Shown here: one piece after another, positions 5,609 to 20,012 of the stretch
How the letters are laid out: every line of letters begins with the position of its first letter
Numbering within the stretch: the stretch's first letter is position 1
IMG/VR virus record: IMGVR_UViG_2913167280_000002
Direction: 5' to 3' (one strand)
Length of the DNA: 46,386 nucleotides
DNA from: a virus
Taxonomy: Duplodnaviria; Heunggongvirae; Uroviricota; Caudoviricetes
Translations under genes and position numbers: made by a program
Notes under the pieces: generated by a model
The model's input: only the letters and a program-made list of their open reading frames with translations
Database searches by the model: none
Told to the model about the DNA's origin: nothing

Positions 5609-6760
5609 TTATGGTCTGCTTTTCTGTGCCAGCTTATCAGCACATGTTTTTATCAGATCCTGTAGTGTCCTGGCTGGCAGGTTTGCATCCAGAACGCTGA
5701 GTATGCTGTTGTGATCAGCTTGGTCGACTACTTTGCCTGTCGGTGGTAGTAGCTTGAGCTGAGGATTCAGGTTTTCGTCAAAGCTGATAAGTGCTCTGGC
5801 GTTTCTGAGCAGATCAAGAAGTAAGGCTGATATCACATTTTCCTGAGTCATTGCTGGCAGATTTAGCGCCGCTTTGGTTTTCCCTGTTGCCTTGTCAAAC
5901 TCCTTGATTAGTTCCTTTCTGTAGTTCGGTTCCGTTAATAGCCGATTATGCTCTGTTGCCGCGCGGATAATCGTTTTTTCCTGGTACAGTCGTTTAGCCA
6001 GATCGCGCTCGTACTGTGTTTTTAACACGCTGCTGATAGCGTTAAAGGCTTCAATGTAGGCCAGCTTGATATCTTTCACGCCTGGACCGTCGATGCTCTC
6101 CATGAGCAAGGTAAATCCGTCTTTTGTCATGCGATAGATTGTTATTTCGCGGTCGCTTCCTTCCAGCGGTCGTTGCTCTTTAAAGAAGTGACGCGCCGCA
6201 GCCGTGCGAGGAATGCGTAGCGCATCGATGGCCATAACGATGGAATTGTTTGTGGTGCTGAATGCCTGGGCAACATCGGCTGAGGTTGTGAGTGGCTCGT
6301 TGTTGCACACTTTAATGTAAAACATCGGTTTGGCGTTGAGCGTATCGACAACCTCACGAGCATTGTTTGGCGAGACGGTTACGGTCGCGGCCGTTTGCGC
6401 GTTCTGGCTGAAATAGCAGTCTTCCAGCCGTTCGAATACATCCCACGCCTGATCGGTTTCGAGCATTTTAGCGTGACGTGCAGCCCCGCGTTCTGTCCAG
6501 AGGATGAGAGAGCGAGTTTTGGGGGAAATTTGCACCTCATTTTGTGACTCGTTTAAAACTAGTCGCAAATTTTTGAGTTCATCACCAACAGCTTTAAAGA
6601 AGTGCTTCCCCTCAATGAACCGAGTTTTATTTTCATGGTGATTTTGCTGTATACGGATTGCTTCTGTTCCATAAAGGCGGGCGAGTAGCTCAGTTGTGAT
6701 TACTGGAATCTGATTATGCAGGATAGGCTGTAGGGTGTTAACGATCGGAAGCGTTTTCAT
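5609..6760 (-). CDS. phage antirepressor-like protein (Ant/Rha-type)
   Basis: 383 aa; N-terminal region resembles antirepressor/Rha regulatory domains; preceded by an overlapping small ORF as in P1 icd-ant. Confidence 0.5.
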   Translation of the reverse strand: MKTLPIVNTLQPILHNQIPVITTELLARLYGTEAIRIQQNHHENKTRFIEGKHFFKAVGDELKNLRLVLNESQNEVQISPKTRSLILWTERGAARHAKMLETDQAWDVFERLEDCYFSQNAQTAATVTVSPNNAREVVDTLNAKPMFYIKVCNNEPLTTSADVAQAFSTTNNSIVMAIDALRIPRTAAARHFFKEQRPLEGSDREITIYRMTKDGFTLLMESIDGPGVKDIKLAYIEAFNAISSVLKTQYERDLAKRLYQEKTIIRAATEHNRLLTEPNYRKELIKEFDKATGKTKAALNLPAMTQENVISALLLDLLRNARALISFDENLNPQLKLLPPTGKVVDQADHNSILSVLDANLPARTLQDLIKTCADKLAQKSRP

Positions 6761-6948
6761 TTTGCACCTCCCATAACAACTTTGGTTACGAGGGAGATTT
6801 TTGCGTCAGAAACAGCGTTATCGTTGCTGGCGATGCGCATAGCTTCGCGCTCGATGATTTCAGCCAGGCGGAATTTATCGGCGTATGAGGCTTTCTTGAG
6901 AAGGATCTTTACGAGGTTGACGTAATAGTCATGGGGTAGGTTTGTCAT
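6757..6948 (-). CDS. small protein translationally coupled to the antirepressor (icd-like position)
   Basis: 63 aa; ATGA overlap with the antirepressor start. Confidence 0.4.
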   Translation of the reverse strand: MTNLPHDYYVNLVKILLKKASYADKFRLAEIIEREAMRIASNDNAVSDAKISLVTKVVMGGAK

Positions 6949-7113
6949 TGTGATGATTCCCTTAAAGGTTAAGGATACTCACCACCGTCAGGTTCCAATC
7001 ATTGGGTGGTGAGACGTGCAGGGTTGGAACTACCGGACACAATGACGAACCGGCGAGTCTTACGACTCCCCCGCACGCCCCACCATAATTTGGGTGTAGC
7101 AGTGCTTTACGCA

Positions 7114-7200
7114 TAAAAAAACCGCTAACGCGGTATGCGCCATTGTGTCTACGGGGTTCCAATCCCGGCCGTAGATTTTGCTACGGCTCGGAAAGTGTCC
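7114..7200 (-). ncRNA. candidate small regulatory RNA upstream of the antirepressor operon (c4-like position)
   Basis: Minus-strand terminator (stem ACCGC/GCGGT at 7121-7134 plus T-run); hairpin 7149-7174 whose loop carries GGTTCCAAT; no ORF. Boundaries approximate. Confidence 0.3.
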
Positions 7201-7245
7201 ACCAATGGCGCATTCATGTCAATACGGCGGGATTTTAACAGACTA

Positions 7246-7263
7246 AACCACATAGTGTGGGTT
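7246..7263. promoter_or_regulatory. operator-like palindrome (ACCAC-N5-GTGGG)
   Basis: aaccacatagtgtgggtt between the divergent antirepressor region and the 7398 HTH gene. Confidence 0.35.
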
Positions 7264-7397
7264 TGAATGCGGGGCTTTTAATTTTCTTGATATGCTAAAA
7301 ACGGGAATGTATAGTTCCTGTAAGGAATCAATTAGTCCTGAGTTATGATGTTTTGTTAAAGTCGGGAACAAGAAAAAATTCAGTATGGGGATAAAAA

Positions 7398-7937
7398 ATG
7401 ATTGAACTGTCAAAAAACTCATGTTTTTCAACCATTCACCTAATGATCATAAAAGAACTTAGGCTAGAAAGAGGTGTGCATCAAGGAGTACTGGCTCAAG
7501 CTGCTGGAAAAACACCAAACGCATGGACAAAGATAGAGAACGGGCAGTCTATATTAACAGTTGACGCCCTTTTTGGTGCTTTCACAGCCCTTAATATTAC
7601 TCCAGTGAATTTCATGTCATTGGTAGAAAATCTTATTCCCGAATTTAACCGTTATGGTTACTTCTTTTTCCCTGGAACAATCAGTCAGGACGAGGATAAC
7701 CTTTTACCTCTGATGCTGCGTTACTTTAATAGCAAGGGGTTTGAAGCATTGAGAAATAGGCCATTAGAAAGAGTTAGCATTAGCTCAATGGGATTCTCAT
7801 TTGGGGGCGGCATCCCTGTTACTCCAACTGCTGTAATGTATTGTTGCGATGAAGCATATAGAAATTGGGTCGATAACGGTGCTGATGTGGATAATCGAGA
7901 TTATCTGGAGTCATCAACAGGTCGTGGACTGTTTTAA
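7398..7937 (+). CDS. HTH (XRE-family) domain protein with C-terminal domain of unknown function
   Basis: N-terminal HTH segment GVLAQAAGKTPNAWTKIENG; 179 aa. Confidence 0.5.
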   Translation: MIELSKNSCFSTIHLMIIKELRLERGVHQGVLAQAAGKTPNAWTKIENGQSILTVDALFGAFTALNITPVNFMSLVENLIPEFNRYGYFFFPGTISQDEDNLLPLMLRYFNSKGFEALRNRPLERVSISSMGFSFGGGIPVTPTAVMYCCDEAYRNWVDNGADVDNRDYLESSTGRGLF

Positions 7938-7950
7938 TGAGTGAAGAAAC

Positions 7951-7982
7951 AAAAAAACCGTCCTTTTGAGGACGGTTCTTTC
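7951..7982. terminator. bidirectional rho-independent terminator
   Basis: Stem ACCGTCC/GGACGGT with an A-run upstream and a T-run downstream. Confidence 0.6.
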
Positions 7983-8374
7983 GTGCTGATCGGATTCGCG
8001 GTCCTTTCAGCATTACGTTGTTGTATAAACAACCACGCAAGCACAAGCAGCAAGTTGATTTTACCCAAAAGGTAATAATAGTCCACTATTATGCTTCAAA
8101 AAATTGTGGTTCTTGTTGTGTCTGCAAACTCACAGATTGTGGGTAGGTTACTGATTTTGTGAAAATAAACTGGTTTTTTCGTTTAATTTATTTCCTATTA
8201 CTAATCTTAAAATAATCGTAAAATACCTGTGGACCTTCCCGCCGATTCGCACCCGGGCACCGACTTTAGGGGAGGATTTCCTGTTGCCGTACATGCAAGC
8301 ACAAGCAGCCGTGCTTGCTCTCGCGTTGTTTTCGTCGGTGGGGATGCCGTGAAACGGCCTGTAAGGGCCATACA

Positions 8375-8497
8375 ATGAAAAAATACTGTATGTGTATTTT
8401 TATCGTTGTTACTGGGGCTTTGTTTACGCCACATGGGGAGGGTTGGAAGATTACTGATAACGCTCTGAATGTGACGATAAACATTAGCAGCAAGTAG
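8375..8497 (+). CDS. candidate small hydrophobic peptide (40 aa)
   Basis: MKKYCMCIFIVVTGALFTPHG...; AAGGG about 8 nt upstream; ends just before the terminator at 8503. Speculative. Confidence 0.25.
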   Translation: MKKYCMCIFIVVTGALFTPHGEGWKITDNALNVTINISSK

Positions 8498-8502
8498 CGA
8501 TT

Positions 8503-8526
8503 AGGCCCCTTCGGGGGCCTTTTTTA
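8503..8526 (+). terminator. rho-independent terminator
   Basis: Stem AGGCCCC/GGGGCCT, loop TTCG, then TTTTT. Confidence 0.65.
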
Positions 8527-8535
8527 TGGTTGAAT

Positions 8536-8718
8536 TTAAACGCTGGAGCGCATTAAGCCTTTCAGAACTGCTTCACGTACCCATTCTGGCCTGGTGGATA
8601 GCAGGGCAAATAAGCGACCAGCTTGCAGCCGTTTGAGGTCGGTTAGACGAGTTTTCAGTAACCGTGTATATTGTTTCTCGGACATAACAAATTCCCCTTG
8701 TTGTGTCGCGACGGCCAA
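8536..8718 (-). CDS. hypothetical small protein
   Basis: ORF downstream of the partition genes on the same strand. Confidence 0.3.
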   Translation of the reverse strand: MAVATQQGEFVMSEKQYTRLLKTRLTDLKRLQAGRLFALLSTRPEWVREAVLKGLMRSSV

Positions 8719-17970: not shown

Positions 17971-18115
17971 GTATTGTTTTTTTATTGATCGATTAACCAC
18001 ATTTTGAAGGTTTTTTTTATGGGAAAACCTTGTTTTAGGTGGTAACTGGGTGTAGTGTTTCATTTAACGTAGTAAAACTGCGTTAAGCGATTACCGCGTA
18101 ATTTGTTGCTTTATG

Positions 18116-18147
18116 AAGCCCTGCCTTTTCGGCGGGGCTTTTTTTTT
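18116..18147 (+). terminator. rho-independent terminator immediately upstream of the lysis cassette
   Basis: 9-bp stem AGCCCTGCC/GGCGGGGCT followed by nine T; ends 14 nt before the holin ATG. Confidence 0.65.
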
Positions 18148-19936: not shown

Positions 19937-20012
19937 GGCCCCTTAGCTCAGTGGTTAGAGCAGGCGACTCATAATCGCACGGTCATCGGTTCAAGTCCGG
20001 TAGGGGCCACCA
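19937..20012 (+). tRNA. tRNA with CAU anticodon (Met or lysidine-modified Ile)
   Basis: 76 nt; 7-bp acceptor stem, D-arm GCTC/GAGC, anticodon loop CTCATAA, T-loop TTCAAGT, encoded CCA; one G-A mismatch at the top of the anticodon stem. Confidence 0.75.

Follow-up and report, generated by a model that had tools for sequence, protein, structure and literature searches.

A probable timP-timR type I toxin-antitoxin cassette, divergent from its known relatives, on an Escherichia phage-plasmid

What is encoded by a few hundred base pairs of viral DNA that carry an exact 15-nucleotide (nt) direct repeat, a hairpin at either end and no credible long gene? The question is raised by a locus in IMG/VR record IMGVR_UViG_2913167280_000002, from which we analysed a stretch of 46,386 nt, hereafter the window; all coordinates are window positions. 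An earlier note on this DNA had proposed a type I toxin-antitoxin or small-RNA locus, and the proposal holds up well, as the plus strand encodes a full-length ryfA/timP mRNA whose peptide is TimP, with a TimR small RNA (sRNA) encoded divergently upstream. We conclude, with a probability of roughly 0.85, that positions 7945-8535 form a timP-timR (RyfA/TimR) type I toxin-antitoxin cassette on a temperate myovirus kept as an Escherichia phage-plasmid of about 48 kb. The TimP/TimR family has already been described (PMC7667032, PMC11228461, PMC13000454), and the locus is a divergent addition to it, neither a new type of element nor a new mechanism. Its main parts are as follows.

7945 to 8535, both strands: the whole timPR cassette, 591 bp, limited by the 3' ends of the two RNAs.
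8229 to 8526, plus strand: timP toxin mRNA (Rfam ryfA), about 298 nt, from the RF00126 match.
8375 to 8497, plus strand: timP open reading frame (ORF), 40 amino acids and a TAG stop, with its ATG at +147, the same as in K-12.
8503 to 8526, plus strand: timP intrinsic terminator, from the terminator scan, with a 7-bp stem, six G-C pairs and a T6 tail.
7945 to 8051, minus strand: TimR-like antitoxin sRNA, about 105 nt, from a covariance model.
7951 to 7982, minus strand: TimR intrinsic terminator, an inverted repeat with a U7 tail on the minus strand, from folding.

We first consider the toxin mRNA. Positions 8229-8525 of the plus strand match the Rfam ryfA family (RF00126) over model positions 1-296 of 296, with 143 bits against a gathering score of 80 and an E-value of 7e-37, and the match recurs in every related plasmid and phage checked. 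RyfA has been redefined as the timP toxin mRNA of a Salmonella type I toxin-antitoxin system, in which TimP is a 38-amino-acid inner-membrane toxin encoded from +145 to +261 (PMC7667032). The corresponding E. coli K-12 locus is annotated as timR (b4811), ryfA (b4440) and timP (b4812), timR having formerly been named STnc2070/RyfB. The strong plus-strand terminator described earlier at 8503-8526 was recovered as a stem at 8503-8520 followed by a T-run, and it coincides with the terminal hairpin of the Rfam ryfA model. By blastn against complete E. coli genomes, the locus matched the plasmid family alone and not chromosomal ryfA; DNA similarity alone therefore misses the identity, and a covariance model was needed.

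The ORF at 8375-8497, for which a hydrophobic N-terminus had been noted, encodes MKKYCMCIFIVVTGALFTPHGEGWKITDNALNVTINISSK, and its residues 4-17 indeed average 2.4 on the Kyte-Doolittle scale. Over its entire length the peptide can be aligned with five other TimPs, at 40% identity to that of K-12 and 49-51% to those of Yersinia and Serratia plasmids, with ten invariant columns (M1, C7, I8, V12, G14, A15, L16, V33, N36 and K40). The NCBIfam model NF040796 (toxic_TimP) matches residues 1-40 of 40 with an E-value of 7e-5, and no Pfam model matched the peptide. All family members that tblastn recovered have an intact timP ORF, and across 15 homologues the differences by codon position (1692 at the third, 1276 at the first and 789 at the second) carry a coding signature. 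A TTG-initiated, in-frame ORF of 60 amino acids at 8315-8497 was considered and rejected, as the TimP start aligns with that of K-12 at +147.

For the antitoxin side, we trained a TimR covariance model on 11 TimRs taken from outside the plasmid family (from chromosomes or contigs of E. coli K-12, Erwinia, Pantoea and Kalamiella, and from Yersinia and Serratia plasmids). Over the whole window this model gave one strong full-length match, at 7951-8049 on the minus strand, with 65.7 bits and an E-value of about 9e-15 under a rough calibration. Judged by its sequence, the minus-strand sRNA is a TimR homologue, beyond mere complementarity to the mRNA. From the annotated 5' end of K-12 timR and the promoter geometry we infer that it starts at G8051. 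Folded from G8051 to about 7945, it gives a z-score of -5.9; most of its 5' tail is unpaired, and the structured part comprises two hairpins, one small and one the conserved GCUGAAAGGACCGCGAAUCCGAUCAGC hairpin, and the terminator. The core GCTGAAAGGACCGCGAATCCGATCAGCA is common to the TimRs of the window and K-12. The next-best match to the model, at 18046-18142 on the plus strand (21 bits, E about 0.001), is probably driven by a terminator-like hairpin. A separate observation concerns the TimR candidate of Pantoea latae (record L015, 1188-1268, minus strand), which scores 40.7 bits as AgrB, the dinQ antitoxin sRNA, against an Rfam gathering score of 40 bits; this hints that TimR resembles AgrB, or that the match is driven by the terminator.

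The left-hand hairpin had been read as a bidirectional terminator at 7951-7982. The hairpin is real, with inverted repeat arms at 7949-7964 and 7969-7984, and its main assignment is now as TimR's own terminator, given its perfect U7 tail on the minus strand. It was not listed by the consensus terminator scan and was established by repeat finding and folding. A helix-turn-helix (HTH) gene converges on it, and the hairpin may also terminate that gene; it remains with timR in plasmids that have no HTH gene.

The two RNAs are connected by the direct repeat, which involves the following two features; SL denotes a stem-loop of the mRNA.

8034 to 8051, minus strand: TimR 5' recognition sequence 5'-GCUGCUUGUGCUUGCGUG-3' (repeat copy 1), TimR nt 1-18.
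8292 to 8318, plus strand: SL2 with the TimR target (repeat copy 2) at 8292-8309 and a stem of 8295-8302 with 8311-8318.

The 15-nt repeat GCAAGCACAAGCAGC lies at 8037-8051 and 8295-8309 of the plus strand, as the earlier note had reported, and, if a single C/T difference is allowed, the match grows to 18 nt (8034-8051 and 8292-8309). An exact direct repeat of 15 nt was reached in 1 of 2000 dinucleotide-preserving shuffles of 7900-8560, and no third copy was found in the window with up to two mismatches allowed (0.14 matches expected in shuffles). One copy is transcribed from the minus strand and the other from the plus strand, so that the direct repeat in DNA amounts to complementarity between two RNAs, a meaning that the earlier note had missed. 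TimR nt 1-18 can form 18 contiguous pairs, one of them G-U, with timP +64 to +81, spanning the loop and 5' arm of SL2. Salmonella TimR binds the SL2 loop and 5' arm (PMC11228461), its 5' end pairing with the 5' untranslated region (5'UTR) of timP over 18 nt (PMC7667032). The hairpin said to form between the second repeat copy and GTGCTTGC (8311-8318) proved to be SL2 of the Rfam ryfA model, 8295-8302 pairing with 8311-8318.

The same arrangement is found well beyond the window. When the timP 5'UTR of 12 other loci is compared with the opposite strand upstream of it, the longest complementary stretch begins at +63 to +67 and is 16-28 nt long, with differing sequences; across the 13 loci, cognate partners have 16-24 contiguous pairs, as against a mean of 5.2 for non-cognate ones. 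Within the plasmid family, moreover, the two sites change together. The double change G8047A and G8305A occurs in the Yersinia-phage, ATCC 25922 and p222 subtype (records L001, L004 and L007), and A8049G and A8307G in the pHN68-3 subtype (L005 and L006), while the remaining repeat differences (T8294 versus C8036, and A8298G in L001) are G-U-compatible. Such matched changes, arising twice and at identical offsets each time, speak strongly, on comparative grounds, for a function of both sites through RNA pairing.

We also examined how specific the pairing is expected to be. With RNAduplex on fragments of 30 by 50 nt, cognate partners reached -36 kcal/mol and non-cognate ones -21 to -25 kcal/mol, a moderate discrimination; on full-length RNAs the calculation was uninformative, and contiguous pairing was used instead. 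Insulation between plasmid subtypes was not seen, their cross energies being similar. Against the host, K-12 TimR and plasmid timP can form just 6 contiguous pairs, and plasmid TimR and host timP 10; with 6 contiguous pairs at most, the host chromosomal TimR should not neutralise the cassette. A further 10-nt sequence, AGCAGCAAGT, stands both at 8046-8055, in the region of the TimR 5' end, and at 8486-8495, over the last timP codons (SSK and the stop). The copy at the end of the ORF may allow about 6 nt of extra TimR pairing, or may simply reflect the conserved C-terminus.

Upstream of the ORF, the mRNA retains the stem-loops and the pseudoknot that have been described for timP. In addition to SL2, the 5'UTR contains the following elements.

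8235 to 8274, plus strand: SL1, lower stem 8235-8240 with 8269-8274, from the Rfam alignment and pair counts.
8258 to 8264, plus strand: pseudoknot site 1, CACCGAC, within SL1.
8286 to 8290, plus strand: site 2, GCCGU, which can pair with site 4 (ACGGC, 8354-8358) and so open SL4.
8321 to 8352, plus strand: SL3, which contains pseudoknot site 3, GUCGGUG, at 8334-8340.
8354 to 8371, plus strand: SL4, which sequesters the Shine-Dalgarno sequence AAGGG (8363-8367) in its 3' arm, from the Rfam alignment (helix 6).

We counted pairs in an alignment of 19 distinct timP 5'UTRs, taking slid partners as controls. SL1-SL4 and the pseudoknot together have 94.6% of cells paired, compared with 42-46% in the controls, and 14 pairs show changes on both sides. 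The SL2 stem (helix 4) is paired in 98.7% of cells and the site 2-4 helix in 95.6% overall. The 7-bp SL1-SL3 pseudoknot CACCGAC/GUCGGUG is paired in 100%, with four of its seven pairs compensatory: G-C and A-U, the pairs of most other sequences, are replaced in the window clade by A-U and C-G. The activating site 2-4 and inhibitory site 1-2 interactions have both been described previously (PMC13000454).

Between the two transcribed parts lie the promoters.

8058 to 8085, minus strand: predicted timR promoter-like site, TGGACT, 16 nt, TAAAAT, 6 nt, G8051, from the consensus scan.
8219 to 8224, plus strand: putative timP -10 element, TAAAAT, 4 nt upstream of +1, with no good -35.
8052 to 8228, both strands: divergent-promoter spacer, about 177-178 nt, varying strongly among plasmid subtypes.

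The K-12 timR promoter has a matching geometry (TTGACA, 17 nt, GAGTAT, 6 nt, G), and the position of the TAAAAT proposed for timP agrees with the TACAAT/TATTAT -10 of other timP loci. The consensus promoter scan found no timP promoter. A plus-strand promoter match at 8349-8376, inside the 5'UTR just before the ATG, was rejected as a chance match. Between subtypes the spacer is 44-53% identical, and the transcribed parts 84-100%. An 11-nt tandem repeat, TAATCTTAAAA / TAATCGTAAAA (8202-8223), overlaps the putative timP promoter and is confined to the spacer of the window subtype.

How far, then, does the unit extend? The earlier note had drawn it at 7983-8530; the features it placed there stand, whereas its limits do not, because the left hairpin, being the TimR terminator, is part of the locus, so that the unit is 7945-8535. 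In the related plasmids L002 and L021, homology restarts exactly at 7945. A natural empty site is provided by the Salmonella salamae plasmid CP053324 (L028), where 17 nt (2779-2797) stand in place of window positions 7224-8535; ryfA was not detected in this plasmid, even at an E-value of 0.01. The absence of a long ORF was likewise borne out, the region holding just mechanical ORFs of 75 amino acids or fewer. Three of these, each of 75 amino acids on the minus strand, were rejected as genes, since the two RNAs account fully for the region.

The cassette is widely distributed within one replicon family. The structural half of the window (20001-45000) is 98% identical to the Yersinia phages vB_YpM_39/41/44 and to E. 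coli phage vB_EcoM-613R2, and the locus region matches 59 circular, non-mobilizable PLSDB plasmids of 46-52 kb. The plasmid family occurs in 72 of 5,426 complete E. coli genomes, including the reference strain ATCC 25922. In PLSDB, the par segment is present in 59 records and the TimP ORF, always intact, in 58 family records. Among phage records, the cassette is carried by the three Yersinia phages only, and tblastn with a Yersinia-type TimP found no further phage; with a K-12-type TimP, tblastn among sequences labelled as plasmids returned mislabelled chromosomes only. In the annotated records inspected, no annotated feature covers the cassette, likely because the peptide falls under the NCBIfam cut-off and these records contain no ryfA RNA feature. 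Nor did the searchable literature contain a paper tying timP or ryfA to phage-plasmids or to the related phages.

We compared the locus with known systems, beginning with the chromosomal timPR of Salmonella Typhimurium and E. coli K-12. The two share the Rfam mRNA family and the K-12 ORF start at +147, a TimP-like peptide with a hydrophobic N-terminus and a C-terminus ending in SSK, and an sRNA, encoded divergently without overlap, that uses its 5' end to pair with the loop and arm of SL2 (over 18 bp in the window and 18-20 bp in the chromosomal loci). They also share the SL1-SL3 pseudoknot, a Shine-Dalgarno sequence buried in SL4 and intrinsic terminators on both RNAs. In contrast to the chromosomal copies, the window mRNA scores 143 bits against 315 in Rfam, its recognition sequence differs, which leaves the little cross-pairing with the host given above, and it lies on a phage-plasmid beside parA rather than between sseA and sseB. 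Its spacer measures about 177-178 nt, that of K-12 399 nt and those of most other timPR loci 61-82 nt.

Closer relatives are found on conjugative IncFII plasmids of Yersinia and Serratia (for example pGDT4, NC_011759), which likewise carry timPR, with a full-length ryfA, on a mobile replicon. Outside the family we found no TimP closer than theirs (49-51% identity, with the motifs G-x-G-W-x-I and V-T-I-N in common), and their TimRs have 20-28 nt of complementarity. Unlike the phage-plasmid copy, these timP genes have tra and phospholipase D genes of a conjugative plasmid as neighbours. Their RNAs reach 214-236 bits, and their peptide exceeds the NCBIfam threshold; at least one record annotates it, the NCBI annotation pipeline (PGAP) labelling the Yersinia IncFII timP 'small toxic inner membrane protein TimP'. 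Separately, we observed tandem ryfA/timP duplicates about 500 bp apart in Kalamiella and Erwinia genomes (L013, 1353-2145; L017, 1354-2221; L020, 1354-2151).

The tisB/istR-1, zorO/orzO, shoB/ohsC and dinQ/agrB systems also pair a membrane-toxin mRNA with a divergent, adjacent, non-overlapping antitoxin sRNA, and use a short 5'UTR pairing region far from the ribosome-binding site (PMC7667032). They differ in needing mRNA processing or standby sites, whereas timP is a processing-independent structural switch with a pseudoknot, and their Rfam families all score below the gathering thresholds in the window. With regard to the possible role, hok/sok of plasmid R1 and phd/doc of phage-plasmid P1 are functional analogues, in which a stable toxin message or protein meets an unstable antidote on a low-copy replicon beside maintenance functions; the window also has P1-type immI RNAs (C4) nearby. 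The resemblance to hok/sok is functional only, as hok/sok relies on overlapping antisense and mok coupling whereas the antitoxin here is divergent and non-overlapping, and in the Rfam scan all hok/sok families stayed below their gathering scores throughout the window. The phd/doc system is a type II protein system with no relationship to this locus in sequence or structure.

Several observations weigh against the timPR reading. The peptide stays below the NCBIfam NF040796 cut-off (23 versus 45 bits; K-12 TimP reaches 86.8 bits), although a significant match under the curators' threshold points to a divergent TimP subgroup. In the mRNA, the SL4 stem of the window has one C-A mismatch, and the site 2-4 helix retains five of its six published pairs in the window clade. 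The site 1-2 interaction, in a guessed register, is paired in 77.9% of cells, no better than shuffles, and one of its pairs is broken in the window clade. Finally, the window-type timP promoter consists of the -10-like TAAAAT alone, with neither a -35 nor the TGTACAAT motif of other loci.

While the architecture of the locus, that is the mRNA folds, the ORF, TimR and their pairing, can be read from sequence and comparison, its working mechanism can be proposed by homology to the Salmonella system. TimR would bind SL2 and destabilise the pseudoknot-containing, translation-competent fold, thereby blocking initiation of translation from a position far upstream of the ribosome-binding site. When TimR is absent, pairing of sites 1-3 and 2-4 would free the Shine-Dalgarno sequence and TimP would be made; the peptide would then enter the inner membrane via its signal-like N-terminus, and the membrane would turn leaky.

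What such a switch might do for its replicon is less certain. Post-segregational killing, or addiction, that helps to keep the phage-plasmid is a serious candidate, at somewhat less than even odds. This role is suggested by the position of the cassette beside parA, by its near-universal presence in the family, by the reported lower stability of TimR compared with timP mRNA (PMC7667032), and by the limit of 6 contiguous pairs between host TimR and plasmid timP, which should keep the host from silencing the toxin. Three points count against it. Deletion of timR in Salmonella permits TimP synthesis with no growth defect (PMC7667032), so that toxicity at native levels is uncertain; the window-type timP promoter looks weak; and related phage records annotate a higB2 toxin elsewhere.

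We weighed four other explanations. The cassette could serve defence or competition, through abortive infection or exclusion of related phage-plasmids, the trigger being transcription shut-off and TimR decay. A link between type I toxin-antitoxin systems and abortive infection has been reported, as for hok/sok against T4 (cited in PMC13000454), and temperate phages often hold defence cargo in variable slots, of which the present slot, with its HTH cassette and the empty Salmonella site, would be one. However, Salmonella timPR had no effect on P22 infection (PMC7667032), and adjacency to parA and near-universality in the family suit maintenance equally or better, which makes defence an unlikely main role.

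It is more doubtful still that the plus-strand RNA is mainly a RyfA-type regulator of host stress, biofilm and virulence, whose small ORF is incidental or natively non-toxic. RyfA is reported to affect stress resistance and virulence in uropathogenic and avian pathogenic E. coli and in Shigella; the toxic peptide has been described as still undetermined in E. coli strains; and the native de-repression of TimP in Salmonella without a growth defect fits the same idea. Yet the ORF is intact family-wide, with codon differences ordered third, first, second and a conserved hydrophobic N-terminal segment, and the pseudoknot, the Shine-Dalgarno-sequestering SL4 and the TimR site have all been kept through compensatory changes.

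A neutral passenger or decaying remnant from an enterobacterial replicon, with no current function, is slightly less probable again. The cassette is missing from the Salmonella relative without any other obvious change to the backbone, and a weak-looking promoter would suit decay, but it is found in about 58 of 59 family plasmids and in three phages with the ORF always intact, its two RNAs co-vary, the spacer has drifted to about 50% identity with the transcribed parts still conserved, and chromosomal flanking genes such as sseA or sseB did not come along. Lastly, protein-binding DNA sites (a par centromere, iterons or an operator for the HTH protein) hardly come into question for the 15-mers, since, although direct repeats near a partition operon and co-variation could also befit paired binding sites, the window has two copies only, these sit exactly at the TimR 5' end and in ryfA SL2, a position used with differing sequences in 12 unrelated loci, the tolerated differences noted above are those of G-U pairing, a signature of RNA and not of DNA, and many plasmids keep the repeats without the HTH gene.

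The timPR cassette has distinct neighbours on either side. To its left lie the P1-type immI region and then the HTH gene, and to its right an ORF of 82 amino acids and parA. The P1/P7-type immI-like immunity region spans 5609-7187 on the minus strand, and the first four features below belong to it.

7002 to 7090, minus strand: C4 antisense RNA.
7115 to 7187, minus strand: isrK.
6757 to 6948, minus strand: ORF of 63 amino acids.
5609 to 6760, minus strand: antirepressor-like gene of 383 amino acids with ORF6N and Rha domains.
7398 to 7937, plus strand: gene for an HTH_3 protein of 179 amino acids, within a separate variable cassette (7265-7944).
8536 to 8718, minus strand: ORF of 60 amino acids, directly right of the timPR cassette and downstream of the par-adjacent ORF of 82 amino acids.

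The HTH cassette at 7265-7944 is missing from L002 and L021, a pair drawn from the related plasmids and viral contigs, which retain timPR from 7945 onwards. The ORF at 8536-8718 is annotated once among related records (NZ_CP024865, as a hypothetical protein of 49 amino acids), and its DNA is conserved in the Salmonella relative. A tRNA-Met gene lies at 19937-20012 on the plus strand. In the region matching the structural half, the Yersinia and E. coli myovirus records annotate a higB2 toxin, a hin invertase and clpP, and the phage-plasmid may thus carry a second toxin system.

For annotation, the finding exposes a gap: a family of phage-plasmids carries a toxin-antitoxin cassette that is unlisted in the annotated records checked. 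For the mechanism of the TimP/TimR family, the compensatory changes in these divergent sequences are independent support for the published pseudoknot and for the TimR-SL2 pairing. The papers that defined timPR leave its biological function as an open question, and a mobile timPR beside a partition operon, together with a relative that has the empty site, makes a convenient test system for plasmid stabilisation or phage defence. Tentatively, and with rather more doubt than for an addiction role as such, the locus may be a working addiction module, recruited as a minimal 591-bp cassette beside par and shielded from the host timPR by its diverged recognition sequence. If this is true, the plasmid TimR, with its 10 contiguous pairs to host timP, would possibly interfere with the host system, and the cassette would provide a first clear natural function for timPR.

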